A DNA stretch of 64,000 nt from Candidatus Parcubacteria bacterium (GTDB taxonomy: Bacteria > Patescibacteriota > Minisyncoccia > Phycocordibacterales > PALSA-1337). The stretch is from NCBI GenBank assembly GCA_963766795.1, contig CAVYBN010000008.1:32696-96695 (forward strand), read 5' to 3'. Positions 3,619 through 33,661 of the stretch are shown piece by piece. Within the stretch, counting starts at the first letter, position 1; every line of letters starts with the position of its first letter. A model generated the notes under the pieces. It was not told where the DNA came from, did not search any database, and saw nothing but the letters and a program-made list of their open reading frames with translations. A program made the translations under genes and the position numbers.

Positions 3619-3711
3619 GTCATCCCCGCGAAAGCGGGGATCTAGTGTCTTTGCTGTATGACCCTGGATTCCCGCTTGCGCCTTCGCTTCGCTCCGGCTT
3701 GCGGGAATGAC
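3619..3711. repeat. GC-rich palindromic element, composite copy (93 nt) in the adk-map spacer
   Basis: gtcatccccgcgaaagcggggatctag ... ctggattcccgc[expanded loop]gcgggaatgac. Same ends as the 84-bp copies at 49591, 55962 and 62487. Confidence 0.75.
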
Positions 3712-5620: not shown

Positions 5621-6913
5621 TTAATACTCCCTCATCGCTACTTGAGCATCGATCTTTTTGAGCAAATCAAGAACCACGGAAACCACGATCAATAGCGCGG
5701 TGCCGCCAACGGCGAAGGATTGGGTGCTGTCGGGCGAGAGGCTTTGGATGATGAGAGGCAGTATGGCCACACAACCGAGGAAGATGGCGCCGACCAGCGT
5801 GATGCGCGTGACGATGTTGGCCAGATAGTCGCGGGTATGCTCGCCGGGACGCACGCCGGGGATGAAGGCGCCGCTTTGCTGGAGATTTTCGGAGATCATC
5901 TGGGGATCAAAGGTCACGGCCGTGTAGAAATAAGTGAACAAGACGACCATCAGGAAATAGAAGACGCCGTAGAACCACGACGGCGGCGTGAGGAGGAGCG
6001 CCAAGGATTGCGACCAGGAAGCGATCAGCGGATACGCCGCCCATTTAGCCAGAGCATTGAAGATGATCTGCGGGAACAAGAGGATCGAAAGGGCGAAGAT
6101 GATAGGGATGACGCCAGACTGATTCAAGCGGAGCGGCAGATAGGTCGAGGCGCCGCCGTAGACTTTGTTGCCGCGGACCTGTTTGGCGTAAGTCACGGGC
6201 ACGGAGCGCTCAGCCTCGGTGACATAGACCACGCCGGCCACGGCAAGGACCGCCACGGCAAGGACGATGATGTAGAAAGGCAGATTGGCGAAGCCGGAGC
6301 TGGCCAGCTTCTGGTAATTCTGGACGAAGCCCACGGGCAGGCGCGCCACGATGCCGGCGAAGATGATCAGCGAGACGCCGTTCCCGATGCCGAATTCAGA
6401 GACCAATTCGCCCAGCCACATAAGGAGGATCGAGCCGCCGACGACGATGATGACGTTCTCGGCAAAAGCGAAGGCCGAGAGGTGCGGCAGGACGTTCTGC
6501 GTCTCGAAGAGGATCAGGTAGCCGATGCCTTGCAGGATGCCCAAGGGCACTGATAGCAGGCGCGAATATTGCGAGAGCTTGTTGCGGCCGGCCTCCCCTT
6601 CCTCATGCATCAAGGCTTTCCATTTCGGGAAGACCATGGTGAGAACTTGGATGATGATCGAGCCGGTGATGAAAGGGCCGACTCCGAGCATCACGATCGA
6701 GAGGTTCGACAAGCCGCCGCCCGAGAAGATGTTCAGGAATCCGAAGAGCTGGCTGGAATTGAGCAGGTTCGACAAAGTCGCCGGATTGACGCTCGGGATG
6801 GGGATAGCTGCCAGAACGCGGAATATGATCAGCGCCAATATCGTGAAGCCGATCCTTTTCCGCAGGATCGGATCCTTGAATATGACTGTGATCTTTTGGA
6901 TGAGGTTCTGCAT
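5621..6913 (-). CDS. secY: Preprotein translocase subunit SecY
   Basis: 430-aa polytopic ORF directly after rplO, with typical SecY sequence. Confidence 0.95.
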   Translation of the reverse strand: MQNLIQKITVIFKDPILRKRIGFTILALIIFRVLAAIPIPSVNPATLSNLLNSSQLFGFLNIFSGGGLSNLSIVMLGVGPFITGSIIIQVLTMVFPKWKALMHEEGEAGRNKLSQYSRLLSVPLGILQGIGYLILFETQNVLPHLSAFAFAENVIIVVGGSILLMWLGELVSEFGIGNGVSLIIFAGIVARLPVGFVQNYQKLASSGFANLPFYIIVLAVAVLAVAGVVYVTEAERSVPVTYAKQVRGNKVYGGASTYLPLRLNQSGVIPIIFALSILLFPQIIFNALAKWAAYPLIASWSQSLALLLTPPSWFYGVFYFLMVVLFTYFYTAVTFDPQMISENLQQSGAFIPGVRPGEHTRDYLANIVTRITLVGAIFLGCVAILPLIIQSLSPDSTQSFAVGGTALLIVVSVVLDLLKKIDAQVAMREY

Positions 6914-6916: not shown

Positions 6917-7495
6917 CTAGGAAGATTTCTTGTTGGCTTTCTTATTTGAATCCTTGGAAGCTTCCGCCTTTCCTTTAGGCCCATTCGAATCAGTCGTTCC
7001 CGCCTTCGGCCCGGTCCTCTCGGCAACGATCTTAGTCTTGGCCTTGGGCTTCACAAGCGTGACCGTACCACCAGCCTTTTCTATAGCAGCCTTGGCAGAT
7101 TCCGAGACGGCGCAACCCGAGACCTTGAATGATTTGGTGAGCGCATCACCGCCGAGGATCTTGACCTCGAGGATGCGGCCTGACAGCGTCGAGACAATGC
7201 CCTTCTCTGCGAGGATAGCCGGGTTGATCATGTCGCCCGAAGCGAAGGCGTTCTCGAGCAGATCCAAACCTACCGGGATCGGCCTCTTATAGAAAGAGAT
7301 GTTGGAATTCTTGCCGCGGCCGCGGAGCTTCGGAAGCTTCTTGATGATGTCGCGCCATTCCGGGCGGCGCTTGTTGCCGGCGCGGGCAGTCTGACCCTTG
7401 CCGCCGCGGCCGGAGGTCTTGCCGCGCTTGCCGCCGCGGGCGACGATCATGCGTTTGGTATTGGGGTGATTGCGTTGTAATTGATTGGTTTGCAT
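6917..7495 (-). CDS. rplO: 50S ribosomal protein L15 with Lys/Ala-rich C-terminal extension
   Basis: GGKRGKTSGRGGKGQTARAG motif. It follows rpsE directly, with no rpmD between them. Confidence 0.9.
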   Translation of the reverse strand: MQTNQLQRNHPNTKRMIVARGGKRGKTSGRGGKGQTARAGNKRRPEWRDIIKKLPKLRGRGKNSNISFYKRPIPVGLDLLENAFASGDMINPAILAEKGIVSTLSGRILEVKILGGDALTKSFKVSGCAVSESAKAAIEKAGGTVTLVKPKAKTKIVAERTGPKAGTTDSNGPKGKAEASKDSNKKANKKSS

Positions 7496-7636
7496 GATGA
7501 TTAGAATTCAAAACTCAAATCACAAATTCCAGAGAAGCTCCAGAATTCAAATTCCAAAGGATCATCCCTATTCTTTGAGATTTGAATTTTGGGATTTATC
7601 TGGGATTTGGATTTTGAAATTTGGATTTTCATATTA
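7496..7636. repeat. Heptad-word hairpin spacer, family A
   Basis: The core tcaaatcacaaattccagagaagctccagaattcaaat opposes tttgaattttgggatttatctgggatttggattttgaaatttgg. It fills the whole rpsE-rplO gap. Confidence 0.8.
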
Positions 7637-8431
7637 TTATTTGGTGCTCCTATATTCTTTTTTGGGAGTTTTAATCAGTTGTTCAAGAGCGGCGATCGCG
7701 ACTCTGGCGTTGTTCAAACGGTTCTTCGAGCCGGAAAGATATTTGGCGCAGACGTCCTTGATGCCGGCGAGCTCGATCACGGCGCGGGCCGACGAGCCGG
7801 CGACTACGCCGCGGCCGCGAGCCGGGAAGATCTTGATCATGGCGCTGCCCCATTTGGCTTCGACGGCGTGCGGTATGGTTTGAGCCGGAGAGAGCGGCAC
7901 TCTGATGAGATGCTTCTTGGCTTCGCGAGTGGCCTTTTCGACGGCTCCCGCCGTGTCCGAGCCTTTGCCCAAGCCCACTCCGACGCGGCCCTTATGGTCG
8001 CCGGCCACCACGGCCACGCTGAAATTCATGCGCCGGCCGCCGGCAGTCACGCGGGTGACGCGACGGATGTCGATGATCTTGGAATCGAATTCGGGCTTGA
8101 CGCGCTCGCGGCTGTCGCCGCCCCTGCCTCCTCTGCCGCCGCGCGAGCTACCGCGTCCCAGCCCCTGACCTCCGGCTCCGGGGCCGCTGCCTCGTCCGCC
8201 GCGCCGGGCATTGTCCTGGACTCCGCGCAGCTTACGCCCGGGAGTGACTTTGCCGACAGGCGCAGCCATGGGAGCGGCCGCCGGAACACCGGCCGGGGCT
8301 TCAGCTTTGACAACGGATTCGTCTTCGAGAATGGCCGCGACGTCTACGCCGGTCGCCGGAATCGCGACCTTCAAGGCCGCCTCGTCGGCTCCGTTCATGT
8401 CTGCATTGGTTTTTATCTCTTTGGCTGTCAT
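7637..8431 (-). CDS. rpsE: 30S ribosomal protein S5 with roughly 100-aa N-terminal extension
   Basis: The C-terminal two thirds is canonical S5 (RRMNFSVAVVAGD...GVVAGSSARAVIELAGI). Confidence 0.9.
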   Translation of the reverse strand: MTAKEIKTNADMNGADEAALKVAIPATGVDVAAILEDESVVKAEAPAGVPAAAPMAAPVGKVTPGRKLRGVQDNARRGGRGSGPGAGGQGLGRGSSRGGRGGRGGDSRERVKPEFDSKIIDIRRVTRVTAGGRRMNFSVAVVAGDHKGRVGVGLGKGSDTAGAVEKATREAKKHLIRVPLSPAQTIPHAVEAKWGSAMIKIFPARGRGVVAGSSARAVIELAGIKDVCAKYLSGSKNRLNNARVAIAALEQLIKTPKKEYRSTK

Positions 8432-8443
8432 GTTTTTTGGATA

Positions 8444-8794
8444 TTAAAATTCGAGTCCTCCGGCGCGCGCCGCATCCGCCACCATGGCGATCTTGCCGCC
8501 GTAGATGTAGCCGCCGCGGTCGAAGACCACTTTGGTGATCTTGGCCGCCTTGGCCATCTTGGCGATCTCGATGCCGACTTCCTTGGCGCGATCCACGGGC
8601 TTGGCGCCTTTGACCTTGCGTGAATCGACCGATGCCAGAGTATGGCCCTTGTCGTCATCGATGATCTGGGCGTAGAGATAGCGGTGCGACTTGAAGATCG
8701 CCAATCGCGGCCGCTCGGCCGTGCCTTTGATCTTGGCGCGGATCCTGGCCCGGCGCCGTTCGAAGTTAGCTTGTTTTTTCTGGATGATCTTCAT
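8444..8794 (-). CDS. rplR: 50S ribosomal protein L18
   Basis: The start is set at MKIIQKK (ATG 8794). The longer ORF to 8842 translates the hairpin spacer. Confidence 0.9.
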   Translation of the reverse strand: MKIIQKKQANFERRRARIRAKIKGTAERPRLAIFKSHRYLYAQIIDDDKGHTLASVDSRKVKGAKPVDRAKEVGIEIAKMAKAAKITKVVFDRGGYIYGGKIAMVADAARAGGLEF

Positions 8795-8922
8795 GATAGT
8801 AAATTCAAAAGGCAAAAGGCAAAAGGCAAAATTGAAATTCAAAATTTAAAATTGAATTTGCGACAGAACTTTTGACTTTTGACTTTAACTTTTGCATTTT
8901 GATTTTTGAATTTTGACTTATA
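8795..8922. repeat. Heptad-word hairpin spacer, family B
   Basis: The left arm, (aaaggca)x3 then aaattga aattcaa aatttaa, opposes ttttgac ttttgac tttaac ttttgca ttttgat. Near-identical copy at 13285-13404. Confidence 0.8.
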
Positions 8923-9456
8923 TTACGCCGCCTTTTTGCCTTGCTTTCTCCTGATGATCTCGTCAGAGTAACGCACTCCTTTACCCAGGTACGGCTCCGG
9001 CTTCTTCTTGGAACGGATCTCGGCGGCGAACTGCCCGACCTTCTCGCAATCGATGCCCGTAACAGTTATGCCAGTCTTGTCCGAGACGACTTTCAAGTCA
9101 GCCGGGATCGGCATGACGACCGGATGCGAGAAGCCGAGCGCCATGACCAGATCCTTGCCTTTGACGTCGGCCTTGAAGCCGATGCCTTCGACGATCAGCT
9201 TCTTCTCGTAAGCCTTGTTGACGCCGGCGATCATGTTCTTGATATGCGAAACATAGGTGCCGAGTAGGACCGGCGTCTCGGGAGCTTCATGGGCGGCGGT
9301 CGAGAGTGACCAAGCCGGGCTCGATCGTGACCTTCACGTTCGGGCGAAAGGCTTTCGAAAGCGTGCCGAGCGGGCCTTTGACAGTCAGCGTGCCAGCCGA
9401 ATATGTGACTTCGGTCTTGGCCGGTATGACGATGGGTTTTTTGGCGAGTCTTGACA
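8923..9456 (-). CDS. rplF: 50S ribosomal protein L6, with a single frame break near 9298-9310
   Basis: The N-terminal part MSRLAKKPIVIPAKTEV...EPGLVTL (from ATG 9456) stops prematurely. The rest (TAAHEAPETPVLLGTYVSHIKNMIAGV...) continues in the +1 frame as ORF 8923-9234. Confidence 0.8.
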
Positions 9457-9602
9457 TAGTAATTAAATTCCAGATTTCAAATCACAAATTCCAGAGAAGC
9501 TCCAGAATTCAAATCTCAAAACATCCTTCAAATTCCTTGAAATTTGGACTTTGGAATTTTTCTGTAATTTGGACTTTGAATTTTGGATTTTCATGATAGT
9601 GA
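9457..9602. repeat. Heptad-word hairpin spacer, family A
   Basis: Same core as 7496-7636 (tcaaatcacaaattccagagaagctccagaattcaaat). Confidence 0.8.
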
Positions 9603-9998
9603 TTACCAGATTTTGAACAATACCTCTCCCCCGACCTTATGCTTCCTGGCTTCCGCGCCGGTCAAGATCCCCTTTGGCGTCGAAAGGATGATGTCGCCGA
9701 AACCGCTCTTATATGTGCGGATATCGGAGACGCGCTGGTATATGCGGCGCGAGGGCTTGGAGACGCGTTCGAGATCGTGGATGCGCGCGCCGTTCGTGCC
9801 ATAGACCATGGCGACTTCGAGGGTCTTCCCGACGATCTCCTTGCCTTTCTTCTCAATGGCGGCGACATAGCCGGCTTTCTTCAAGGCGTGGACGACATTG
9901 TCGGCGAATTTCGTGTACGGGATGGTCACGACCGCCTTGCGCGCGTTGGAACCGTTCTTGAGACGGGTGACGAGATCGGAGATTGGGTCGGTAATCAT
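9603..9998 (-). CDS. rpsH: 30S ribosomal protein S8
   Basis: MITDPISDLVTRLKNG...; operon position. Confidence 0.95.
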   Translation of the reverse strand: MITDPISDLVTRLKNGSNARKAVVTIPYTKFADNVVHALKKAGYVAAIEKKGKEIVGKTLEVAMVYGTNGARIHDLERVSKPSRRIYQRVSDIRTYKSGFGDIILSTPKGILTGAEARKHKVGGEVLFKIW

Positions 9999-10143
9999 GG
10001 TAATTAGATCTCAAATTTCAAATCACAAATTCCAGAGAAGCTCCGGAATTCAAATCCAAAAACATCATCCCCATTCCTTGAAATTTGGAACTTGGAATTT
10101 TTCTGTAATTTGGATTTTGGAATTTGGAATTTCATATTGTTCG
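9999..10143. repeat. Heptad-word hairpin spacer, family A
   Basis: Same core as 7496-7636 and 9457-9602. Confidence 0.8.
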
Positions 10144-10329
10144 TTACCACGATGACTTCTTAATTCCCGGTATGGCTCCCTCATTCGCGAATTCACGGAA
10201 GCAGATGCGGCAGAGATCAAAATCGCGCATATAGCCGTGCTTGCGTCCGCAACGGAAACAACGCCGAACCACGCGCGACTTGAATTTCGGCTTCCTTTTC
10301 GACCTGACGATGACTGATGTTTTTGCCAT
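10144..10329 (-). CDS. rpsN: 30S ribosomal protein S14 type Z (zinc-binding)
   Basis: 61 aa with CFRCGR...CRIC. Confidence 0.9.
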
Positions 10330-10598
10330 AATGCAAATGGGATTGGTTAGCGCCGACAGGCCGCTTCCAATCGCTATTTCCCTGAAATACTTCGAAACTA
10401 CTGGGTATTTGAAGGTGTCCTGATACTAACAAAGAGGCAGGATGAAGTCAAATGCATCTGGTGCTTCGAGGAAACTGCGAGCCGGTTCGTCAAAACCGAC
10501 ATCGAATCCCTTCAGGAGAAATGGCGTGGGATGATGGCGAAGGAAGCGATGCTGGTAGTGGCCCTGGCGTAAAACCCTGACACTTCAAAATTTCAGGT

Positions 10599-10625
10599 AA
10601 GCCCGGTCTCAAAAAGGCCGGGCTT
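10599..10625 (+). terminator. GC hairpin (aagcccgg...ccgggctt) followed by a T-rich run
   Basis: An 8-bp GC stem with a 10-11-nt loop, abutting the left target duplication of the second IS. Confidence 0.35.
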
Positions 10626-10635
10626 CTTCATTTAT

Positions 10636-11673
10636 GGCTTAATGGTACTTTTGTGAGGCTGTGATGATACAATCAGCTTCTAGTAAAGCCATATTTAACA
10701 AATATTAATGAATATGCGTAAAAAAAACGATTTCTTGCCCAAATTGCGCTTCCAAAGCGGTAAAAAAGAACGGCCGGTTTAGAGGGATCCAGAGATACAA
10801 ATGCACCGGCTGTTCCGTTCAATTTCAGATATCAAAGAAAAGAGACCCGTCTCAGATCAGAAAGAAGCTCTGGTTTGATTTTTGTTTTCGATACGCGACC
10901 GTCGAGACGCTCACGGAGAAATACCGCAAGTCCGAGAAGTGGGTCCGCAATCAGCTCAAGCTCTACGAGCTTCCGGACGCGAAGCCAGTTCCTCGCGCCA
11001 TGGTCGCGGTCATGGACGCGAGCAAGGTCGGGAACGAGTGGATCTTCGTGGTACGCGATCCGCATACGAAAGAGAACGTGTACATGGAGACGATCCAATT
11101 TGAAAGCACGTTCTGCTACCAGACGGCGCTTCGGGAGCTGAAAGAGAAAGGTTTTACGATCAAAGCCATCGTGGGAGACGGAAAAGTGGCCGTATCGTGG
11201 CTTTTCAAGGGAATACCGTCGCAGATGTGCCACTTCCACCAGAAGCAGATCGTCGTGAGACGGATCACGCTCAACCCTCTCTTGCCAGCCGGCGTGGAGC
11301 TTCTGGCAATCGTGAATACCTTGACTGCGAGCACTGAAGCGGAATTCACCTTGAAGTTCAAGGAATGGTGCGAAAAGTGGGACGCGTTCTTGAAAGAAAA
11401 AAGCTTGAACGAAAAAACCGGAAGATACGCTTACACGCATCGGAAGCTTCGAGGCGCTCGAGACAGCATTAAAAGGCATTTGCCGAACCTGTTCACTTTT
11501 GAAAGATACCCGGAACTCCATATCCCGAACACCACGAATTCTCTTGACGGTTCATTCACCAAGATCAAGAACTCGATAGCCATTCACGCCGGGCTCGCGC
11601 GCGAACAGAAGATCAAAATGGTCAAAACATTGCTTGGAGGGAAAGTCTAGCCTCACAAAAGTACCATTAAGCC
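10636..11673 (+). mobile_element. Insertion sequence (1038 bp); family unresolved (zinc finger plus DDE, with an IS256/ISL3/IS1-like C-terminal signature)
   Basis: Perfect 24-bp terminal inverted repeats ggcttaatggtacttttgtgaggc and gcctcacaaaagtaccattaagcc. The 8-bp direct repeat tcatttat occurs at 10628-10635 and 11674-11681. Confidence 0.85.
10714..11650 (+). CDS. Transposase; the ATG (10714) is out of frame with the body across an A8 tract
   Basis: ATGCGT-A8 is followed, in the +1 frame, by TISCPNC...CTGC and then ORF 11000-11650 (MDASKVG, IVGDGK, TTNSLDGSFTKIKN). An A7 tract would be in frame. Confidence 0.7.
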
Positions 11674-11754
11674 TCATTTATTGAAATATGCTCCAATCGC
11701 CCCGATGTCGCCGCAAGACGGCTCTTCGGGGCGATTTTTGTTGGGGGAAATCGC

Positions 11755-12144
11755 TTACTCTGCGCACAATTTCAAGAGATATCCTTTCAAGACCCTTACA
11801 TAATCGTTGTATTTCTCCTTATCTCTAGGATGTTCAGCGCCAAATCCGAGGCTCTTCCTCTCTTCGATAAAATCAAGATTGATCGACCCTTCCAGAAGAT
11901 CGAGAAAATATACGACCCGATACCCACCGCGTTTTCCGCGATTGCTCTCGGGATCGGGTATGCCGGCATTCCAAGCTTCATAGCGATTATTCGGCGAACG
12001 GTATACGAGCTTCAAACGAGGAGCCTCGCTCTTATTCGAAACAGTCTGCGCCCAGTTTTTGATCGCCGCGCGCAGCTCAACGGAGATCCGCAATCTCTCG
12101 CACATACGGACGAACTGTTCGCGTTCGACGTAGATCCATGCCAT
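11755..12144 (-). CDS. Putative RelE-superfamily toxin (GKRGGYRVVYF motif)
   Basis: The K-x-GGYRV-hydrophobic-Y motif is typical of RelE/HigB-like toxins. It lies 13 nt downstream of a DUF4065 gene. Confidence 0.5.
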   Translation of the reverse strand: MAWIYVEREQFVRMCERLRISVELRAAIKNWAQTVSNKSEAPRLKLVYRSPNNRYEAWNAGIPDPESNRGKRGGYRVVYFLDLLEGSINLDFIEERKSLGFGAEHPRDKEKYNDYVRVLKGYLLKLCAE

Positions 12145-12157
12145 GTCAGTAGCTGAA

Positions 12158-12664
12158 TTACTTCCTGAAGAAATCTATGTCCTCGGCATATTTGTAATCG
12201 ACTATCTCAAATGGCTTAGAGAAAAACCATGGTGCCTCAAGATGGGTCTGGGTCACGATCTTATCAGTCGACCAGCTGCCAAACTCATCACAAATCTCTT
12301 TCAATAATATCTTTTGAGTCGGAGAAAATACGGCTTCATCCAGAGCGTTGGGATTCTTTATCTGGAAACGGATCATCTCTCCGTCTTTGTACGGCATAGA
12401 TTCAGTATCAATAGCTCCTTTTGTCTTCAACCCAGTCAGTATTTGATCCATGTGCGCGGGAACAGGGCCGTATTCCTGATGTACGTATACGTCGGCGCTG
12501 ACTGTTTTGGCCGTGTCTCTAAATGAAATGAAGTCCAGATAATACAGGAGCTTGTTAAGCTTGGTCTTGCCGAGGTATTGATTGTTACAGTATTTGATGA
12601 AATACAAAACTGCGCTTTCATATAAACGCTCATTGGGAAGCGGCTGGGATGCAGTCTTAGCCAT
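12158..12664 (-). CDS. DUF4065 (SocA/Panacea) antitoxin-domain protein
   Basis: KLNKLLYYLDFISF...YVHQEYGPVP matches the DUF4065 core pattern. Confidence 0.7.
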   Translation of the reverse strand: MAKTASQPLPNERLYESAVLYFIKYCNNQYLGKTKLNKLLYYLDFISFRDTAKTVSADVYVHQEYGPVPAHMDQILTGLKTKGAIDTESMPYKDGEMIRFQIKNPNALDEAVFSPTQKILLKEICDEFGSWSTDKIVTQTHLEAPWFFSKPFEIVDYKYAEDIDFFRK

Positions 12665-12720
12665 ATTCAGCCCTAGTATACTACAAAAATGTCAATAGCA
12701 AAAATCAAAAAGAAAAAGAT

Positions 12721-13284
12721 TTATTTCTTCTCCTCCTCCCTCTTCAACGGAAATCCCAGATGTTCGAGGAACGCCAGCGTATGCTTCTTGTCGTTCGAGG
12801 TGGTGACGATGGTGATGGACATGCCGAAGACGTCCTTGAGGTCTTCGTCGGAAGTCTCCGCGAAGATTGTATGCTCCTTGATGCCGAGGGTGTAATTGCC
12901 CATGTCGTCCACCGAAGCGCGCGAGAGGCCGCGGAAGTCCTTGGTCCTGGGAAGCGCGATGTGGATGAGACGGTCGAGGAATTCGGTCATGCGGCGGCCG
13001 CGCAGGGTGATCTGATAGCCGACAGGGTCGCCTTCGCGGGTCTTGAAGGTGGCGATGGCTTTCTTGGTGACGCGCAAGGCCGGCTTTTGGCCGGTGATGC
13101 GAGCCAACCGCTCGGCGATGAGCTCGATCTTCTTCTTGTCCTTGACCGAACCGAAGCCGCTCGAGATGACGACCTTGACCAGACGCGGCGCTTGCATCGG
13201 ATTCTTGAGCGCCAAAGGAGCCTGCAGGGACTTGAATGAGTCCTTGGCGAGATCAAAGGTGTTTTTTGGGGTGATGGTGGTCAT
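12721..13284 (-). CDS. rplE: 50S ribosomal protein L5
   Basis: The start is set at MTTITPK (ATG 13284). The residues before it in the ORF track translate the hairpin. Confidence 0.9.
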   Translation of the reverse strand: MTTITPKNTFDLAKDSFKSLQAPLALKNPMQAPRLVKVVISSGFGSVKDKKKIELIAERLARITGQKPALRVTKKAIATFKTREGDPVGYQITLRGRRMTEFLDRLIHIALPRTKDFRGLSRASVDDMGNYTLGIKEHTIFAETSDEDLKDVFGMSITIVTTSNDKKHTLAFLEHLGFPLKREEEKK

Positions 13285-13404
13285 GGTAATTAAAGGCAAA
13301 AGGCAAAAGGCAAAATGCAAAATTGAAATTCAAAATTTAAAATTGAATCTGCGACGGAACTTTTGATTTTTGACTTTAACTTTTGCATTTTGATTTTTGA
13401 CTTT
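13285..13404. repeat. Heptad-word hairpin spacer, family B
   Basis: Near-identical to 8795-8922. Confidence 0.8.
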
Positions 13405-13623
13405 TTAATTAGTTTTTTTCACCTTCGACGCGTAGATCGGCATAGCTCTCTCGACGGTCTGACCTTTAGCGCCTTGCTGACGGGGTCGCTCATGCTTCTT
13501 GGTCATATTCACACCCTCGACCAATACTTTGCCGAGAGCCGGAAAAGCCTTGACGACCTTGGCGGTCTTGCCTTTGTCTTCGCCGGATAAGATTGTAACC
13601 GTGTCTCCTGTTTTGATATGCAT
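13405..13623 (-). CDS. rplX: 50S ribosomal protein L24
   Basis: KOW motif IKTGDTVTILSGEDKGK. Confidence 0.9.
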   Translation of the reverse strand: MHIKTGDTVTILSGEDKGKTAKVVKAFPALGKVLVEGVNMTKKHERPRQQGAKGQTVERAMPIYASKVKKTN

Positions 13624-13722
13624 GGTAGTGATTACTTTACTTAAATTGATTCAGGATTCAAGATTCATGATTCAGGAATTTTTGTGTTCTTCTTGAATCG
13701 TGAATCCTGAATCTTGAATCTC
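13624..13722. repeat. Heptad-word hairpin spacer, family D (gattcag/gattcaa words)
   Basis: gattcaggattcaagattcatgattcagg opposes cttgaatcgtgaatcctgaatcttgaatc. Confidence 0.8.
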
Positions 13723-14094
13723 TTACACAATCTCCGCCGCCCTCGACGCTATCGTCTTGAAGCCCGCCTCTCCGACTTCGCGCGGGATCGGTCCGAAGAT
13801 GCGGCCGGCGATTGGCTCTTTCTTACCCTTCTCGATGATGACCACGGCATTCTCGTCGAAACGCACGTACGAGCCATCCTTGCGGCGGGTCGGCTTGACC
13901 TGGCGCACCACGACCGCGTGCAGGACGTCCTTCTTCTTGACGGCCTTCCTGGGCTCGGCCTTTTGAACGGAAAGCACCACGACTTCGCCGAGCTCGGCAT
14001 AGCGCTTCTTGGAGGCGCCGAGCACTTTGAAGATGCGGCCGATCTTGGCGCCGGAGTTGTCTGCGATATTCACGATTGTTCTTGGCTGTATCAT
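13723..14094 (-). CDS. rplN: 50S ribosomal protein L14
   Basis: MIQPRTIVNIADNSGAK... Confidence 0.95.
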   Translation of the reverse strand: MIQPRTIVNIADNSGAKIGRIFKVLGASKKRYAELGEVVVLSVQKAEPRKAVKKKDVLHAVVVRQVKPTRRKDGSYVRFDENAVVIIEKGKKEPIAGRIFGPIPREVGEAGFKTIASRAAEIV

Positions 14095-14168
14095 GTTTTA
14101 CTTGAATCAAGATTCAAGATTCATGATTCAAGAGGTTTTTCTTGAATCCTGAATCCTGCATCCTGAAT
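14095..14168. repeat. Heptad-word hairpin spacer, family D
   Basis: cttgaatcaagattcaagattcatgattcaag opposes cttgaatcctgaatcctgcatcctgaatc. Confidence 0.8.
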
Positions 14169-14426
14169 CTATGCGATGATTTTAAACGCCTTCCTCTTCG
14201 AGATCGGCCGACAGGCCAGGACGGTGGCCTTGTCCCCTTCCTTCTTGGTGTTACCCGCATCATGCGCCATGATCTTGGTCTGCTTATTCTGATACTTGCC
14301 GTACTTCGAATGCTTGATGTAGCGCTTGACCAGGACGACGGCCGTGTCTTTCATCTTCGTCGAAACCACGACGCCGGTGAATGTCTGCGGCTTTGTGTTA
14401 TTCGCGGTTGTTTGGGCGGCTGTCAT
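14169..14426 (-). CDS. rpsQ: 30S ribosomal protein S17
   Basis: Operon position; FTGVVVSTKMKDTAVVLV. Confidence 0.9.
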   Translation of the reverse strand: MTAAQTTANNTKPQTFTGVVVSTKMKDTAVVLVKRYIKHSKYGKYQNKQTKIMAHDAGNTKKEGDKATVLACRPISKRKAFKIIA

Positions 14427-14469
14427 GTGAGTTTGGATACTACTTGAAAATCGAGGATTTGTCTAGGAT

Positions 14470-14658
14470 TTAAGCCTTCTTCGCATTCATCGCCGTCAAA
14501 GTGCGGGCGATATCTTTGCGGATGGCTCTGCCTTCTTTGACATTCTTGGTCTTGGAACCGGCCGCGCCGAATCGGAAGACGCGCAAGGCCTCGCGCTTGT
14601 CGGCGAGCATCTTGGACATATCAGCGGCGGTCTTGGTTTTGGTGTCGATCTTTTTCAT
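14470..14658 (-). CDS. rpmC: 50S ribosomal protein L29
   Basis: 62 aa; operon position; LREALRVFRF-like core. Confidence 0.85.
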   Translation of the reverse strand: MKKIDTKTKTAADMSKMLADKREALRVFRFGAAGSKTKNVKEGRAIRKDIARTLTAMNAKKA

Positions 14659-14732
14659 GATCGGAATGGATCGCGTCTCAGAATGAAAGTAAAAAGCTCC
14701 AGAGAGCTATAAAAACATCTTAACAAAGCCGC

Positions 14733-14760
14733 TTGACAAAGTCAATCGAAGCGCTATACT
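14733..14760 (+). promoter_or_regulatory. Sigma70-like promoter: TTGACA, 16-nt spacer, TATACT
   Basis: TTGACA at 14733-14738 and TATACT at 14755-14760, on the strand opposite to all neighbouring genes. Confidence 0.45.
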
Positions 14761-14766
14761 TGCTTT

Positions 14767-14837
14767 GTAAGAAGTAAGTCCTCTTCGCGTTGGGTTACCG
14801 GATGGCGGCCCGTTAAAGCGAGGGGGCTTTCTTTTTT
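14767..14837 (+). ncRNA. Candidate small RNA of about 70 nt (promoter plus structured stem plus U-tract); function unknown
   Basis: Stem 14778-14788 pairs with 14818-14827 (10 bp, including 3 G-U pairs that exist only on the + strand). It encloses an inner GGG/CCC and CCG/CGG stem and is followed by tttctttttt. No ATG lies downstream of the promoter. Confidence 0.35.
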
Positions 14838-14844
14838 AATCTGA

Positions 14845-15472
14845 TCATTCGACCCTGCTTTCAACGATTATTTTGGGCCTGATGCGCTCATAAAACTTAT
14901 CGTCTCCGTATTCATATTTACGAAAGATCGACCATGCGATAAAATCAGCCGCTTGAAGCGATTTTTCATTGTGCGATTCCCTGAATGTAACGCTGACATA
15001 CGATTCGTCCGAAGCAGTGAGAAGCTTTTTGAGACGGTCGCGCAGATCTCCCTCTTGCTCTTTCTTCATATTCCTCTTGTCAATGACAACGGTCGTGTCT
15101 GCCGCACCAAATCCACGATCTTCGCCGAAGCAAACTTTTATTAGTAACTCGCAAGCAACGCAGTATCTTTCGTGCGATGTCTGTCTCCTATCGAACCGCC
15201 TTCCTGTTTTATCCAGAATGATGCAATAAATCGATAGGTCATCAACGGCGTTCAGTTTCTTTAGCATTCGCACGCGCGTGAGATCGCTTGCGTGGTATGC
15301 GTGCAATTCGTTCGGAACAAAGCTCTTCTTGCCCAAGATCTTCCTTGTCTTCTTGACCGCATGCTCCAGCGAGCGCTTACTGGAGATAACTAGCATGGCC
15401 AAAACAAACCATCTGCTCGATGATTTCTTGACTCCCGAGATCTCCGCTTTCGTCTATGAACGCGTATAGCAT
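14845..15472 (-). CDS. DUF3800 domain protein, with a frame break near 15431-15440
   Basis: MLYAFIDESGDLG from ATG 15472 is the DUF3800 N-terminal hallmark. The body continues in another frame (VKKSSSRWFVLAMLVISS...) as ORF 14845-15402. Confidence 0.65.
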
Positions 15473-15589
15473 GGATTAAAAAAATGCCCTCCGCGAATTG
15501 AAGTCTTCGACTCCAGCCGCGGGGCTTTTACAGTTAGAAGTTTAGCAGAAAGTATCAGGCGGTCAAGCGATGCCTTGTAGCTTTATGTA

Positions 15590-16813
15590 TCAATTTGTAA
15601 ATTGGCTGCTGTATTTTTCGTGAAATGCATCAGACTGTGAACACAATGTCGTAGTAACGCCATATTTAATTGTTCCTGCGAAACCGCTTGTATCCTGGCA
15701 CCACCAAGCCCCATTCGAAAGCTGAACCGACTCCGCGTCACTATTCGCGTCGCATTGAGCGCCTATCGGTATCCGAGCATCAACCGCCGTGCGAATATCA
15801 GTCGCGTTAAATGAATTCCCGATGCACGAACCGGAATATGTACCTTTGACGGCATAAAACTTTTTGCTGTCCGAGATAAGCGCAGAAATCAAAGCTTTCA
15901 ATTGATCATCGGTGAATGGTCCGAATGCTGGAAAAGTCGGGGCTGATTGCGTTTGAACAATAGGCATAACGCTTACTGGTGAAGTGCTTGCCGGAGAACA
16001 ATCGTATTTGTTCGCGGAAACGAATCGAGCCGGGATAGTCTGCATGGATTGACCGAAATTATTGTCACCGCCGAGGAAAGCCATCGAAAAGGCTAAGGTG
16101 GAACAATAATAGACGGTTGGATTGACGCAAGACCTTCCAAAGACAGCGACTTGAGTCCCATCGGGAGAAATATTCTCGACTAAAGAACCGCTGCATTTCG
16201 GTGCTTCATTTAAAAGAGCGGGCTGATATCCCGTGAAATTATTCTGACGGCTTACGGCATATTCCATTGCACCGGCAAGATTATCAGTGATGGCAGTCTG
16301 AATGAAAGTCTCATTATTTTGAGGGGTAAAATAAAAGTCGATCAAGATCGTCGGAAGGATCGCCATGGCAACTATGACAAGCGCGAGTAGTTTCATACTA
16401 GTAGCGTTCGTAACGGGTTGTGGCGCATCTACGGTAGCTAATATATTTTTTATTGACCTGTGGATTCCCGTCCATATTCCCGCAAAAATGATGAGAGCGA
16501 AGATGAGATGAGATATTATATTTTGCGCTCCCAGTGCGCTTGAATCCGCGATCAAAATAAGGCCTATGTATAAAAGATACACGAGAGAGACCGAGATTAG
16601 AGCGGTAGTAGCCCACACAAGAGCATCTTTCCTGGAAAAATAGACTTTGTACGCTGATACGAGAAAAAGTAAGATACTGGGGATAGCGATGATGATCTGG
16701 ATTGGATTAATCTCAACCTTGCCTGTGATAGAGGCAAATATCGTGATTATGGAAGCCAGCACCGGAGCTAAGAGTATAGCGACGACCGGATAGACGCGAG
16801 GATTTCTTTGCAT
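15590..16813 (-). CDS. Polytopic membrane protein with a large extracytoplasmic C-terminal domain; function unknown
   Basis: About 5 hydrophobic helices in the first 160 aa. Start set at MQRNPRVY (ATG 16813). Lower GC than its neighbours. Confidence 0.55.
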   Translation of the reverse strand: MQRNPRVYPVVAILLAPVLASIITIFASITGKVEINPIQIIIAIPSILLFLVSAYKVYFSRKDALVWATTALISVSLVYLLYIGLILIADSSALGAQNIISHLIFALIIFAGIWTGIHRSIKNILATVDAPQPVTNATSMKLLALVIVAMAILPTILIDFYFTPQNNETFIQTAITDNLAGAMEYAVSRQNNFTGYQPALLNEAPKCSGSLVENISPDGTQVAVFGRSCVNPTVYYCSTLAFSMAFLGGDNNFGQSMQTIPARFVSANKYDCSPASTSPVSVMPIVQTQSAPTFPAFGPFTDDQLKALISALISDSKKFYAVKGTYSGSCIGNSFNATDIRTAVDARIPIGAQCDANSDAESVQLSNGAWWCQDTSGFAGTIKYGVTTTLCSQSDAFHEKYSSQFTN

Positions 16814-16841
16814 GATTAGAATTGTACCACACCACAAACGC

Positions 16842-17267
16842 CTACGCCCTGCTTATGATCTTAGTCGTCATCGGCAATTTGGTGCCGGCCTTGCGGAGCG
16901 CTTCGGCGGCGATGGCTGGCTCGACGCCGTCGATCTCGAACATGATGCGGCCCGGCTTGACCTCGGCGATGAAGCCCTGCGGGTCGCCTTTGCCTTTGCC
17001 CATCTTGACCTCGGCCGGCTTCTGCGTGAATGGGTGGTCGGGATATATGCGGATCCAGACTTTGCCGGTCTTGCCGGCGTGGTGCATGATGGCCTTGCGG
17101 GCGGCTTCGATCTGGTTCGAGGTCACGCGGCCGTATTTCATGGCCTTGATGCCGAACGAACCGAATGCGAGCGCGATGCCGCGCGTATCGGCGTGCGCCG
17201 CTTCCTTAACGCGGTTCATGCGCATGGTGAACCACTTGCGGTGTTTTACTTTTTTGGGGTATAGCAT
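16842..17267 (-). CDS. rplP: 50S ribosomal protein L16
   Basis: MLYPKKVKHRKWF... Confidence 0.95.
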   Translation of the reverse strand: MLYPKKVKHRKWFTMRMNRVKEAAHADTRGIALAFGSFGIKAMKYGRVTSNQIEAARKAIMHHAGKTGKVWIRIYPDHPFTQKPAEVKMGKGKGDPQGFIAEVKPGRIMFEIDGVEPAIAAEALRKAGTKLPMTTKIISRA

Positions 17268-17381
17268 GGTAGTTTACAGTTTACAGTGCAAAGTGAAAAG
17301 TTTTAGTTGGAAATTTGAAGTTGAATCTGATACGTGATCATTGATTTGCGACTAAAATTTTGCACTTTGCACTTTGCACTT
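17268..17381. repeat. Heptad-word hairpin spacer, family C (agtgcaa words)
   Basis: tttacagtttacagtgcaaagtgaaaag opposes ttttgcactttgcactttgcactttt. Confidence 0.8.
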
Positions 17382-18059
17382 TTAACTTCGTTCTTTGACA
17401 TCCTTCTTGAATATTTCCCCTTTGTAGACCCAGACCTTGATGCCGAGGTCGCCGTATGTCATGTGGGCCTTGTCGCGGGCGAAATCGATGTCGGCGCGCA
17501 GGGTCTGCAGAGGGACGCGGCCGCGCTTCATCTCCTCGGAACGGGCGATCTCCGCGCCGCCCAATCGGCCGCCCAGATATACGCGAACGCCTTTGACTTC
17601 CTTGTTGGCCATGACTTTCTCCAAGGTCTGCTTCATGACGCGGCGGAACGGCAAGCGCTTCTCGAGCGATTCGGCGATCATGAGCGCGATGATGGCAGCG
17701 TTGGATTCTGGGCTGCGGATCTCTTCGACGTCGAGCTTGAGCTCTTGTCCGCCCAGGCTGATCTTCTCCGCGGCCAAGAGCTTCATGATCTTTGCGCGCA
17801 GCTTGACGATGCCATCCCCCGCCTTGCCGATGAGCATGCCGGGGCGCGAGGTCTTGATGATGACGCGGATGACTTTCTGGTTGCGCTCGATGTCGATGCC
17901 GCCCAAGAAGAACGGCCGGAGCTCCTTGGTCAGGAACTCACGGATGGTGAGATCGGCCTTTAGGGCATTCCGGTAATTCTTGTCCGTGGCGAACCAGCGG
18001 CTCTTCCAGTCGCGGATGATCCCAAGCCTGTGAGAATATGGATGGACGGTGTGAGACAT
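17382..18059 (-). CDS. rpsC: 30S ribosomal protein S3
   Basis: Start set at MSHTVHPYSHRLG (ATG 18059). Confidence 0.95.
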   Translation of the reverse strand: MSHTVHPYSHRLGIIRDWKSRWFATDKNYRNALKADLTIREFLTKELRPFFLGGIDIERNQKVIRVIIKTSRPGMLIGKAGDGIVKLRAKIMKLLAAEKISLGGQELKLDVEEIRSPESNAAIIALMIAESLEKRLPFRRVMKQTLEKVMANKEVKGVRVYLGGRLGGAEIARSEEMKRGRVPLQTLRADIDFARDKAHMTYGDLGIKVWVYKGEIFKKDVKERS

Positions 18060-18199
18060 GTTATTAGAAAATTCCAAAACCCAAATTACAAAGTCCAAAT
18101 AAATCATAAGCTCCAAAATTCAAAGCTGCCGTTCCTTTTGGAATTTGAGCTTTGAGATTTATTTGGAATTTGAGCTTTGAACTTTGGATTTTTTTCATG
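18060..18199. repeat. Heptad-word hairpin spacer, family A variant
   Basis: aaattccaaaacccaaattacaaagtccaaat opposes atttggaatttgagctttgaactttggattt. Confidence 0.75.
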
Positions 18200-18559
18200 T
18201 TATTTGTTCATTCTTTTCGATTCTTTTACAACAATAGGTGCCAAGACAACCAATACATTACTGGTGCGCTTCTTGATCGGGAATGCCGAGCCGCGAGACA
18301 TCGGCCTCGAGCGCTTGAGGGTGACGCCTTGATCCACTCGGATCTCTTTGACGTACAGGGTCTCGGCCTCGATCTTGTGGTCATGCTTGGCGTTGGATAT
18401 CGCCGAATCGATCAGGTCGCCCAGAGGATGCCGGGCCTTCTTGGCAGCATTCGTGAGGATGAGCTTGGCTTCCGAGACCTTCTTGCCGCGGACCATGTCG
18501 GCCACGATGCGGACCTTGCGCGGCGAGATGCGGTAGTTTTTGAGAGAGGCAGTGATCAT
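18200..18559 (-). CDS. rplV: 50S ribosomal protein L22
   Basis: Start set at MITASLKNYRISPRKV (ATG 18559). Confidence 0.9.
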   Translation of the reverse strand: MITASLKNYRISPRKVRIVADMVRGKKVSEAKLILTNAAKKARHPLGDLIDSAISNAKHDHKIEAETLYVKEIRVDQGVTLKRSRPMSRGSAFPIKKRTSNVLVVLAPIVVKESKRMNK

Positions 18560-18682
18560 GATATTAAATGCAAAGTGCAAAGTGCAAAGTGCAAAGTTTC
18601 AATTCAAAACTTGAAATTAGATTCGTGCTGGAACATTTGACTTTTGCGTTGAAGTTTTGCATTTTGAGTTATGAGTTTTGAC
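18560..18682. repeat. Heptad-word hairpin spacer, family C
   Basis: The left arm, aaatgca then (aagtgca)x3, opposes ttttgcgttgaagttttgcattttgag. Confidence 0.8.
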
Positions 18683-19033
18683 TTACTTCTTCGTAGAAGC
18701 AGTTTCAGCTGCAGCCTTCGCGGCTTGGGCCGAAGCGACCTCGGCTTCCTTGGCCTTGAGCTCGATCTCCTTCTGCATCTTGCCGCCGTGGCGCACGAAT
18801 TTGCGCGTGGGCGAGAATTCACCGAGGCGGTGTCCTACCATGTCCTCGGTGACCAGCACGTCTATATGCATCTTGCCGTTGTGGACCCCGAAGGTGAAGC
18901 CTACCATCTCCGGAGAGATCTGCGAGCGGCGCGCCCACGTCTTGATAGACGCGGTGGTGGCAGGCTTTTTGCCGGCGATCTTTTTGAGGAGGTTCGCTTC
19001 GACGTACGGGCCCTTTTTGAGCGATCGTGCCAT
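18683..19033 (-). CDS. rpsS: 30S ribosomal protein S19 with Ala/Lys-rich C-terminal extension
   Basis: [11 protein letters not shown]...GHRLGEF. Confidence 0.95.
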
Positions 19034-20553: not shown

Positions 20554-21429
20554 TTACCGCGGCTTATCCACCCGGCCTTGATCGTCTTTCTCGATCATGT
20601 CTTTTGCGTATTTTATGAGATAGCCGTACAAAGGCTCGCCTTCTTTGACGAAGGTATCGAGGAGCGCGAACCTAAGATCGAGATATTCATGGACGAGAAG
20701 ATTCCTCATGTCGGAAAAACGGGCGATCTTGGAAGCGACGCTCTCGTCGAATCCGTCCAAAAACGCCAGCTCTTTCAGTATCGCTTTGTAGGTCTGTGGT
20801 ATAGGCCTTTTTCTTGAAGCAATCAATATCTTCCCGATATCGATCGAGGCGTTGGCGAGAGTCTCGGCCCAACGCTCGAGGTTGCGCTTGACGGAGATAT
20901 CCCTCTCGTATTCTTTTTGAGACATTCCTGCAAACTTTTTGAAATCCGGCATCTGATCTTGGACAAAATCGATCAACCTCTCGAGCCTGACTCTGTCGTT
21001 CGCCGACAATGATCTTGAGCGTTCTTTTATCTTCACGAAGTCAGAGATAAAATACCTGAAATCATCCGCCAGATCATTCACGGCAGCCGATAATCTGGAA
21101 AGAAGCCCTTCGTCGGCTGAAAAGACCTTATTCCCCTCCTCGATGACGGCGGAGAACAGCGTTGATGGAGCGCGATTCAAGACGACCATGTCCGTCTGTC
21201 GTCCAGTCAGACGCTCCAAGTCGCTCCCGATATCGTCCTCGCCGGGATAACGATTCTCTGATTCGTATTCCAGTGCCTTGGTTCCGGGCCTGAAATATAC
21301 CCCGATATCGACATCGGATTCGCCGTGAGAAGTGCCTTTGGCGACTGAACCAAACAGATACGCGAAAGCTACATCCGTCCGTCCGCGGAAATATTCTCGC
21401 AATTTGGCGATCAGAGCATCTTTGTCCAT
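20554..21429 (-). CDS. Fused minimal nucleotidyltransferase (MNT) and HEPN/DUF86 protein
   Basis: The N-terminus has LFGSVAKG...SDVDIGV (pol-beta NTase GS...DxD). The C-terminus has RNLLVHEY (the R-x4-H HEPN motif). Confidence 0.65.
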   Translation of the reverse strand: MDKDALIAKLREYFRGRTDVAFAYLFGSVAKGTSHGESDVDIGVYFRPGTKALEYESENRYPGEDDIGSDLERLTGRQTDMVVLNRAPSTLFSAVIEEGNKVFSADEGLLSRLSAAVNDLADDFRYFISDFVKIKERSRSLSANDRVRLERLIDFVQDQMPDFKKFAGMSQKEYERDISVKRNLERWAETLANASIDIGKILIASRKRPIPQTYKAILKELAFLDGFDESVASKIARFSDMRNLLVHEYLDLRFALLDTFVKEGEPLYGYLIKYAKDMIEKDDQGRVDKPR

Positions 21430-24150: not shown

Positions 24151-24156
24151 AGTGAG

Positions 24157-33653: not shown

Positions 33654-33661
33654 TTGATTAT

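Follow-up and report, generated by a model that had tools for sequence, protein, structure and literature searches.

Among the long simple-sequence repeats (LSSRs) of bacteria, tandem heptanucleotide arrays outnumber every other category in most of the genomes covered by the survey of Mrazek et al. (2007) as cited in PMC4679880, and slippage has been proposed as their general explanation. In Xanthomonas, 186 and 183 heterogeneous GGGANTN arrays were found, mostly between co-oriented genes, and 70-75 convergent GGGANTN pairs have stem-loop potential (PMC4692102). Other heptamers include GGGGA(T/C)T of Nostoc and the STRR of Calothrix and Anabaena (Mrazek 2007 and Mazel 1990, as cited in PMC4692102 and PMC4679880), and in Beggiatoaceae, TAACTGA arrays lie just 5' of start codons that mostly lack ribosome-binding sites, those of ribosomal-protein (r-protein) operons included (PMC4679880). 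Here we describe heptamer repeats in a stretch of 64,000 nt from a Candidatus Parcubacteria bacterium (contig CAVYBN010000008.1; hereafter the window), within which 10 of the 15 junctions measured in the S10/spc r-protein operon, rpsS to secY on the minus strand, are filled by AT-rich spacers of 74-145 nt, each made of two opposed arrays of 7-nt words. On balance, and with modest assurance, these elements are taken to be dispersed, fast-turning-over palindromic repeats with heptamer arms, non-autonomous and probably mobile, that are selfish or near-neutral and are filtered by translation.

With the Xanthomonas, Nostoc and STRR heptamers the spacers of the window share a 7-nt unit with fixed and free positions, a mostly intergenic location between co-oriented genes, frequent inverted pairs (stem-loops), variability between close relatives and a function that is not established. 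They differ from these in that one G-rich word per genome is found there, whereas at least eight AT-rich families occur here, and in that contiguous arms here fill the stop-to-start gaps of an essential operon, with palindromes of 120-145 nt forming families; the G-quadruplex potential on which the Xanthomonas work focused is absent. None of the named words (CCCCAGT, TTGGTCA, CAACAGT, GGGAATC, TAACTGA) forms an array in the window. The Beggiatoaceae TAACTGA repeats are likewise heptamers a few nucleotides 5' of starts and inside r-protein operons, with a patchy cross-phylum distribution suggesting horizontal spread, but they are direct repeats (one inverted in 170) of a single word in 2-6 copies, in contrast to the opposed arms, many words and long hairpins described here.

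The elements also resemble the REP, BIME and REPIN sequences, which are short, non-autonomous intergenic palindromes, arranged as inverted doublets and long imperfect hairpins, present in many copies within families and between operon genes, with RNA hairpins that can secondarily affect mRNA stability (PMC3116915 and general knowledge). Inverted doublets and dispersed family copies, the marks of REPs and REPINs, were both found in the present set; REP units, however, are 20-40 nt long without 7-nt periodicity and have a RAYT gene as defining partner, and none was seen among about 50 scanned open reading frames (ORFs) of the window. Miniature inverted-repeat transposable elements (MITEs) such as Correia of Neisseria, ERIC of enterobacteria and RUP and BOX of pneumococcus are imperfect palindromes of 100-160 nt with terminal inverted repeats and a non-repetitive interior, and the target duplication of Correia is TA. 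The likeness lies in the intergenic position within operons, the presence or absence by strain and the transcribed hairpins; here, in contrast, the whole arm is periodic, the entire arms serve as inverted repeats and no consistent duplication is found when filled and empty sites are compared. Rickettsia palindromic elements (RPE), reportedly described by Ogata and colleagues in 2000, are said to be selfish palindromes residing in frame in protein-coding genes. Palindromes surviving by staying translatable may be common to both systems, in-gene copies (849-1001 and 56482-56552) and junction copies with an open frame being present in the window, but RPE extend the host protein, whereas here a separate mini-cistron with its own ATG and stop is mostly found.

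The initial annotation of this DNA had not recognised the spacers as a described repeat class. This is correct insofar as no matching paper or Rfam family was found, the literature search giving no paper on the core strings and none linking heptamer repeats with Parcubacteria or Patescibacteria, and incorrect insofar as the kind itself, the heptanucleotide repeat, has been described. None of the systems listed above has together the whole-arm 7-nt periodicity, the many word families per genome, the saturation of an essential operon and the stop-to-start mini-cistrons.

The G+C fraction of the spacers is 0.25-0.34 against about 0.52 for the window. As the initial annotation had it, each extends from a stop codon to the next ATG, its boundaries proving exact, and the words vary by junction within a constant architecture. 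Arm pairing at 7496-7636, put there at roughly 40 of 55 positions, agrees with the output of an inverted-repeat finder, by which the arms 7500-7562 / 7570-7632 (63 nt) are 73% complementary; the arms 18063-18124 / 18137-18198 (62 nt) are 71% complementary, and those of the shorter families reach 83-91% (family D), 92% (ttctaga) and 83% (tacgaat). Periodicity of seven dominated by two methods. Tandem Repeats Finder (TRF) reported period 7 in 40 of 90 rows and period 14 in nine, and a self-identity scan over lags 3-15 gave nine segments (578 nt) at lag 7, five at lag 14, one at lag 15 and none at other lags. About 21 of the 58 gaps in the window are rich in period 7. The units stand head-to-tail in runs longer than expected by chance, are mostly intergenic and vary in length among close relatives, as is typical of heptanucleotide LSSRs, the junction lengths differing from those of L081, L121 and L194 (relatives are designated by three-digit handles, to be distinguished from r-proteins such as L5).

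Folding of 16 elements on both strands was compared with 200 dinucleotide-preserving shuffles. By this check, which had been proposed with the initial annotation, a total of 15 elements were more stable than their controls, with z of -2.3 to -7.9 for the sense and -1.9 to -8.7 for the antisense strand, the exception being 18560-18682 (z -1.5 sense / -1.0 antisense). The elements of the operon are as follows.

7496-7636, minus strand: family A, rpsE/rplO junction; z -2.4 sense / -6.8 antisense
8795-8922, minus strand: family B, rplF/rplR junction; 3' arm of perfect tandem AAAGGCA-type words
9458-9602, minus strand: family A, rpsH/rplF junction; orthologous element in L194/L193, last 58 nt identical
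9999-10143, minus strand: family A, rpsN/rpsH junction; junction of 7-9 nt in L081, L121 and L194
13285-13404, minus strand: family B, rplX/rplE junction; empty in L081 and L194, degenerate ortholog in L121
13624-13722, minus strand: family D (GATTCAN) hairpin, rplN/rplX junction; arms 91%; z -7.9; no bridging ORF (see below)
14095-14168, minus strand: family D hairpin, rpsQ/rplN junction; arms 83%; z -7.0
17268-17381, minus strand: family C (AAGTGCA; B/C superfamily) hairpin, rpsC/rplP junction; z -4.8
18060-18199, minus strand: family A, rplV/rpsC junction; z -5.8; junction of 1 nt in L194
18560-18682, minus strand: family C, rpsS/rplV junction; weakest hairpin, z -1.5

At least eight unrelated word families coexist in the window, the word types including CAAAWYY, CAAAAGK, GCAAAGT, GATTCAN, TCTAGAW and TACGAAT. 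The grouping of family A stands: its seven copies align, with CAAA in the 5' arm and TTTG in the 3' arm fixed in every copy at every seventh nucleotide and with one conserved step of 11 nt, and the remaining word positions vary, often breaking pairs. In three copies of the window a 38-nt 3' arm is near-identical. Families B and C had been listed separately; their members were found as described, but B and C align as one superfamily. The gattgaa elements are indeed heptamer arrays but depart from the hairpin design, that at 32988-33029 being single-arm and that at 34260-34315 folding weakly (-11.4 kcal/mol). Finally, 60745-60975 does contain a family-A hairpin, but as part of a composite in which it is nested in an outer hairpin of 9-nt words; the 9-nt-word family also occupies the L29/S17 junction in L194. 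The copies outside the operon and inside genes are listed below.

30477-30637, minus strand: family A, outside the r-protein operon; no bridging ORF; 5' flank of CTAATTGAC-type 9-nt words
57668-57792, minus strand: family A; z -6.0; ATG-led frame ending after 24 codons
60745-60975, minus strand: composite, family-A hairpin inside an outer 9-nt-word hairpin (CTAATTAAC / TTAGATCAA); -75 kcal/mol; z -7.5
46128-46213, minus strand: ttctaga-word hairpin; arms 92%; family also at S17/L14 in L084 (84%)
46637-46745, minus strand: tacgaat-word hairpin; z -7.4; copy of about 84-85% identity between adk and map in L081
42394-42455, minus strand: tacgaat half copy
31624-31768, minus strand: aaaaatt-word hairpin; G+C fraction 0.16; arms 80%
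32988-33029, minus strand: single-arm heptamer array (sense TCTTCAA; gattgaa family), directly 5' of a start codon; no hairpin
34260-34315, minus strand: short gattgaa-family array, weak hairpin, ending in TAATTACC ATG
849-1001, minus strand: GC-rich heptamer hairpin (GGGGACA/GGGTACA ... GTACCCT/GCACCCT) inside a beta-CASP/RNase J-like coding region
56482-56552, minus strand: heptamer array (sense CAAAAGT; by TRF 7.7 copies of ACTTTTG on the plus strand) within the long ORF 55530-57674

At its end, the copy at 849-1001 runs into a stop and the frame changes, possibly through an assembly indel; in the L193 ortholog (18600-18789) a different in-frame hairpin insert, of 63 residues, occupies the same site of the beta-CASP gene.

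Two further repeats or structures of the window stand apart from these families. A second dispersed palindromic repeat, CATTCCCGCGAAAGCGGGAATCC, was found at 49650-49672, 54524-54546, 55964-55986, 56444-56466 and 62546-62568, that is, five matches against 0.01 expected by chance, with a related copy near 3600-3700; several copies lie inside long ORFs and the 56444 copy adjoins a heptamer array. The 190-nt intergenic region 33640-33830 (minus strand) folds into a long stem of very high stability (-86 kcal/mol; for the gap 33654-33821, z is about -10.6), in which neither heptamer periodicity nor an Rfam match was detected.

The elements were compared with relatives, the nearest of which are the most informative. 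Closest to the window stand uncultured Patescibacteria of the Paceibacteria / Candidatus Taylorbacteria kind; identity of the L5 protein to its best relative (near-full-length match) is at most 85%, and an exact-protein look-up with S8 gave no record. Among 802 ribosomal-gene junctions of 80 genomes, the median spacer is 15 nt and 71 spacers reach 60 nt or more. Relatives of 83-89% DNA identity carry clean spacers of 5-31 nt at most of the same junctions. Expanded spacers occur patchily (L008, L015, L033, L019, L016, L002) and follow the same plan with other words (TTCAATC, GAGAYTR, TAGTAAY, CCATTAA), some as hairpins and some as single arms. In L081 (about 77-90% identity by segment), the L24/L5 junction is reduced to TAA-ATACC-ATG and S5/L15 to TAA-GAAAAAACC-ATG, and elements of its own stand at L29/S17 and S17/L14. 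L121 (mostly 82-90%) is without the family-A elements at S14/S8, where the spacer is 9 nt, and at S8/L6, where it is 31 nt; a degenerate element of family B is present at its L24/L5 junction, and its S17/L14 junction has only the 5' half of such an element. L194 (about 80-91%) has elements in common with the window at S8/L6 and S5/L15, and 1-9 nt at L22/S3, S17/L14, L14/L24, L24/L5 and S14/S8, the empty L24/L5 site reading TCAACTACC. The rplN/rplX junction is 5 nt in L194 and holds a single-arm array in L081.

Replacement is best seen at S17/L14: the window has family D there, L084 has ttctaga and L081 yet another family, while in L121 the junction holds half a family-B element and in L194 just 8 nt. 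Conversely, one family is found at different loci: tacgaat at 46637 of the window and between adk and map in L081; ttctaga at 46128 and at S17/L14 in L084; B/C-like copies at L22/S3 in L038 and twice in L042; A-like copies in L038 and L031; and the CAAAATGAAAAATGACAATTC family at four different junctions in L019, L023, L024 and L028. Elements nest in one another and occur inside coding genes. Presence/absence polymorphism and non-orthologous copies, as known for MITEs, were thus both found. At a given junction, about 11-17% DNA divergence is enough for an element to appear, disappear or give way to another, and this is the behaviour of dispersed copy-and-paste DNA.

According to the initial annotation, absence of the spacers from close relatives would mark them as assembly artefacts. 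This rule does not hold: spacers missing in relatives turn up again in other assemblies. Over 948 nt that take in both family-D spacers, the window matches a Logan contig of run ERR11593882 (L083) at 100% identity, and the family-A element at S8/L6 is also present in two metagenomes of the Joint Genome Institute (JGI; L193 and L194). Since the spacers recur in further assemblies, they are not an assembly artefact, and their absence in relatives is ascribed to turnover.

Related sequences were also detected outside the phylum. An exact search with a 19-nt family-A core gave 36 metagenome loci, about two-thirds of which, by eye, consist of CCAA-NNN heptamers, the irregular 11-mer CCAGAGAAGCTCC, a loop and then the mirror image. 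Soil contigs with this core have a G+C fraction of 0.51-0.63 and encode NuoL (complex I subunit L), an ADOP permease and GspF; these properties indicate that the hosts of the soil copies are not Patescibacteria, and the irregular 11-nt step common to both argues for common descent of the element rather than convergence. Among viral contigs, a 15-mer of the core gave 71 matches with heptamer context in one only, and no sign of phage carriage was seen.

The relation between slippage and dispersal can be considered at this point. The initial annotation had suggested a heptamer-expansion process as one origin of the spacers, and this is supported by perfect tandem runs that are present in one arm and missing from the opposite arm (e.g. 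AAAGGCA x3-4, TGCAAAG x4) and by single-arm arrays without a hairpin; the arms change by word-sized steps. It could be argued from the same runs and arrays that nothing moves, and that heptamer slippage junction by junction, with template switching to make the inverted arm, produced every spacer in place, all the more as heptamers are the most expansion-prone repeat size (Mrazek 2007 as cited in PMC4679880 and PMC4692102) and as words differ by junction and genome. Copies of 120-145 nt at different loci, however, share the order of words, the irregular steps and the loop-proximal sequence (the 3' arms of A; B versus B), one and the same family can occupy different junctions depending on the genome, another phylum also has the family-A core with its 11-nt step, and elements are nested. 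Origin in place is therefore regarded as distinctly improbable.

As a further possibility, the spacers might be functional mRNA hairpins that serve RNase III or other processing, act as barriers to 3' exonucleases or insulate cistrons, as the REP/BIME elements of E. coli do within operons. They lie in transcribed stop-to-start junctions, fold far beyond shuffles, have stems long enough for a double-strand-specific RNase and are dense in one highly expressed operon; in addition, the start-proximal 3' arm is unusually conserved (58/58 between the window and L194). A conserved role of this kind (RNase III processing, insulation or translational control), as suggested at first, is nevertheless not supported, given the absence of the elements at most orthologous junctions of close relatives whose operon is otherwise intact, families that are interchangeable at one junction, copies inside genes and the lack of covariation and of T-tracts. 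The consensus fold of the seven family-A copies gave a covariation term of +0.74 kcal/mol with invariant CAAA/TTTG anchors and few compensatory pairs, and thus gives no covariation support. Neither a curated model nor compensatory pairs kept at orthologous sites, as expected of a structured RNA family, were found: at the gathering score, Rfam gave no match over the whole window, and at permissive E-values over the operon and eight soil loci only generic miRNA-precursor-like hairpins far below threshold. Across 36 hairpin spacers, folding of the sense strand is slightly weaker than that of the antisense, by a mean of +2.2 kcal/mol (22 versus 14; Wilcoxon p = 0.049), and the comparison was dropped as a sign of RNA selection, the difference running opposite to the prediction. 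No intrinsic terminator was found inside any element, the count equalling the shuffle expectation. An RNA-level effect is possible, but it is not what maintains the elements, and mRNA hairpins as their explanation are held to be unlikely.

A promoter scan returned two weak matches at element 3' ends, the second hexamer overlapping the start codon. TTGACT-like words were considered as -35 boxes of leaderless transcripts and this idea was dropped, because the -10-like TAATTA stands only 2-4 nt from the ATG.

The context of the start codons bears on how such insertions could be tolerated. Lack of a Shine-Dalgarno sequence, first remarked before rplO, is general: GGAG, GAGG or AGGA stands upstream of 5 of 71 predicted starts. 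The starts of the window favour C at -1 and A at -3 and -6. A TATACT/TATAAT-like box stands 6-13 nt before the ATG of many first genes and suggests that their transcripts are leaderless; internal cistrons presumably depend on close coupling of stop and start. The last 8-12 nt before each ATG are kept (TAATTACC, ACTAYC), the hairpin beginning a median of 3.5 nt after the stop and ending a median of 11.5 nt before the ATG, and the effective spacer after folding is 15.5 nt against 14 nt for native spacers. This effective spacer of about 15 nt was rejected as evidence of hairpin-mediated coupling, as simple insertion into a native spacer of about 15 nt predicts the same.

In 7 of the 10 operon elements, i.e. 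four of family A, both of family B and one of the two of family C, an ORF bridges the two genes. These bridging ORFs are ATG-initiated, 30-44 codons long, start 1-25 nt past the upstream stop and end in TAA or TGA 4-10 nt before the next ATG.

7501-7632, minus strand: bridging ORF in 7496-7636, 43 codons; ATG 4 nt past the rpsE stop, TAA 5 nt before the rplO ATG
8805-8897, minus strand: bridging ORF in 8795-8922, 30 codons; stop 10 nt before the ATG
9463-9594, minus strand: bridging ORF in 9458-9602, 43 codons
10004-10135, minus strand: bridging ORF in 9999-10143, 43 codons
13290-13388, minus strand: bridging ORF in 13285-13404, 32 codons
18064-18198, minus strand: bridging ORF in 18060-18199, 44 codons; ATG 1 nt past the stop, TAA 4 nt before the ATG
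18564-18662, minus strand: bridging ORF in 18560-18682, 32 codons

In a census of 81 long spacers (10 of the window and 71 of relatives), a bridging ORF was found in 16 on the sense strand and in one on the antisense. Deletion of 1-2 nt at three test positions left 1-8 bridging cases and deletion of 3 nt left 14-16, and among word shuffles the bridging configuration came up, depending on the element, in 0.3-10% of trials. Long frames in themselves are not unusual for these words, shuffles reaching the observed length in 12-95% of trials; what is unusual in the bridging frames is only the placement of start and stop together with the agreement of frame. In the alignment of the B/C superfamily the ATG does not vary, the 5' boundary ATGAAA is found also in several soil homologues, and the JGI gene caller annotated two bridging frames in L194, 1-9 nt from their neighbours. 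With moderate confidence, the bridging frames are considered a tolerance filter or an adaptation to translational coupling.

That frames of 30-44 codons are genuine small-protein genes, the hairpin being incidental, would agree with their retention in the sense strand and with an orthologous 43-codon frame in L194 of the same length and 72% protein identity. This is nonetheless highly improbable: a search of 5.8 billion proteins with a bridging peptide gave one relative only, the frame that is read differs among the soil copies, the peptides are of low complexity and simply mirror the words, and a 58-nt identical stretch contains no synonymous change at all, which indicates that the constraint acts on nucleotides.

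We now return to the elements as dispersed, probably mobile repeats under a translational filter. Heptamer arrays would grow and homogenise by replication slippage, and new sites would receive the whole palindrome through a trans-acting transposase like those of REPINs and MITEs or through recombination between copies. Copies might accumulate in stop-to-start junctions because these would be almost the sole non-coding DNA of a small genome. In an organism without Shine-Dalgarno sites, an insertion could be tolerated if stop/start coupling were kept; it fits this filter that the pre-start context is untouched and that the folded spacer of about 15 nt resembles the native one. Through the bridging ORF, a terminating ribosome could re-initiate twice, unwinding the hairpin on its way.

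Several observations weigh against this interpretation. Copies within a family are not independent, and the bridging cases correspond to about 8-9 independent families or genomes; moreover, family D, one family-C copy, both L042 copies and the L121 copy have no bridging ORF. The window shows apparent indels (the split rplF and the frame change in the beta-CASP gene), so that arguments from single-nucleotide frames carry a caveat. The 3' arm of the S8/L6 element is identical at 58/58 positions between the window and L194, while the flanking genes are about 86% identical and the 5' arm is clearly more diverged; this points to nucleotide-level selection or recent gene conversion, neither of which is predicted by a purely selfish model. 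No transposase or RAYT-type gene was found among the scanned ORFs (about 50), and comparison of filled and empty sites gave no consistent target-site duplication, the flanks being AT-rich, e.g. TAATTA...TAATTA and ATG...ATG. Whole-arm heptamer periodicity is, to our knowledge, not a feature of known MITEs or REPINs, and the phased invariance of CAAA/TTTG could reflect a binding partner. As to integrons, no integrase domain was found in the scanned ORFs, attC sites were considered by reading alone, and the flanks are core ribosomal genes.

A binding partner is the core of another proposal, in which the arrays are read by a protein taking about 7 nt per subunit, either on single-stranded RNA or DNA (cold-shock or S1-type OB-fold) or as a nucleoid protein, an idea put forward for the TAACTGA repeats by MacGregor. 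Within a family each word has 4-6 invariant and 1-3 free positions, a pattern also reported for GGGANTN of Xanthomonas, the arrays adjoin starts without Shine-Dalgarno sites, and the 3' arm is conserved although the arm it pairs with is not. One reader protein, on the other hand, cannot fit at least eight unrelated word families, the turnover between relatives is rapid and no candidate protein is linked to the arrays, and little probability is given to this proposal. By weight, the rivals rank in the order mRNA hairpins, local expansion, binding array and small-protein genes.

It is also conceivable, though doubtful, that family A (and B/C) are self-contained mobile coupling cassettes, each bringing its own start (at the 5' boundary ATGAAA), a frame open through the two arms, a stop and a linker of 4-5 nt (TAA-TTACC) that recreates the native junction. 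Such cassettes could invade coupled operons lacking Shine-Dalgarno sites without breaking termination-reinitiation; on this view GGAGCTTCTCTGGAATTTG, the strictly conserved core of the 3' arm that recurs across phyla, would be a functional site for mobilisation or ribosome handling.

Heptamer repeats, whose function is not established, thus appear here in an extreme and analysable form, with palindromes saturating an essential operon of an uncultured bacterium of tiny genome and with relatives that provide the empty sites. Their rapid gain and loss speaks against annotation as regulatory RNAs. In Patescibacteria the elements are a hazard for assembly and gene calling through spurious small ORFs and in-gene inserts. 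The shared core ties a lineage of the Candidate Phyla Radiation (CPR) to unrelated soil bacteria and may mark horizontal exchange. If the bridging frames are real, they offer a system for the study of re-initiation between cistrons without Shine-Dalgarno sequences, and of the adaptation of selfish DNA to it.

The genes of the operon, each confirmed by Pfam, are as follows.

5621-6913, minus strand: secY
6917-7495, minus strand: rplO
7637-8431, minus strand: rpsE
8444-8794, minus strand: rplR
8923-9457, minus strand: rplF
9603-9998, minus strand: rpsH
10144-10329, minus strand: rpsN
12721-13284, minus strand: rplE
13405-13623, minus strand: rplX
13723-14094, minus strand: rplN
14169-14426, minus strand: rpsQ
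14470-14658, minus strand: rpmC
16842-17267, minus strand: rplP
17382-18059, minus strand: rpsC
18200-18559, minus strand: rplV

No L30 gene was found between S5 and L15. The rplF gene (L6) is in two frames, 8923-9234 and 9287-9457, and as rplF is essential, the split points to an assembly indel rather than a pseudogene. Non-ribosomal genes are found at two junctions: a SocA/Panacea-domain gene and two ORFs of unknown kind at 10330-12720 (rpsN/rplE), and a DUF3800 gene and a 407-residue unknown at 14659-16841 (rpmC/rplP). Foreign DNA of 130-9466 nt is found at the L5/S14 junction in the great majority of the relatives examined (L001-L080), and this junction is an insertion hot spot across the clade.

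The L29/S17 spacer, 14427-14469 (minus strand), is conserved in L121, L008, L033, L019 and L194 (TAGACAAAT...CAAGTAGTATC) and matches a promoter-like pair, TAGACA, 17 nt, TAGTAT; it is possibly an internal promoter or a regulatory site upstream of rpsQ.

A reverse transcriptase (RT) at 22773-23810 was considered as a source of the repeats and rejected, as it belongs to a diversity-generating retroelement having its own template and variable repeats. This retroelement, 22773-25244, is composed of the RT (minus strand), a template repeat at 24157-24253 and a variable repeat at 24608-24704, the latter at the 3' end of the target gene 24603-25244 and with all mismatches at plus-strand T, i.e. coding-strand A. 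Between the template and variable repeats lies a strongly structured region of 270 nt (24335-24602; -111 kcal/mol) with AAGTGCA heptamers.

A scan for tRNA and tmRNA in the window gave none. Both components of a type VII toxin-antitoxin system, the MntA antitoxin and the HepT toxin, are matched by a single ORF at 20554-21429, which is either a fusion or the result of a missed stop. In a low-GC island at 42-48 kb lie a second SocA/Panacea gene (45051-45527), a second DUF3800 gene (47973-48905) and a RelB-like gene.

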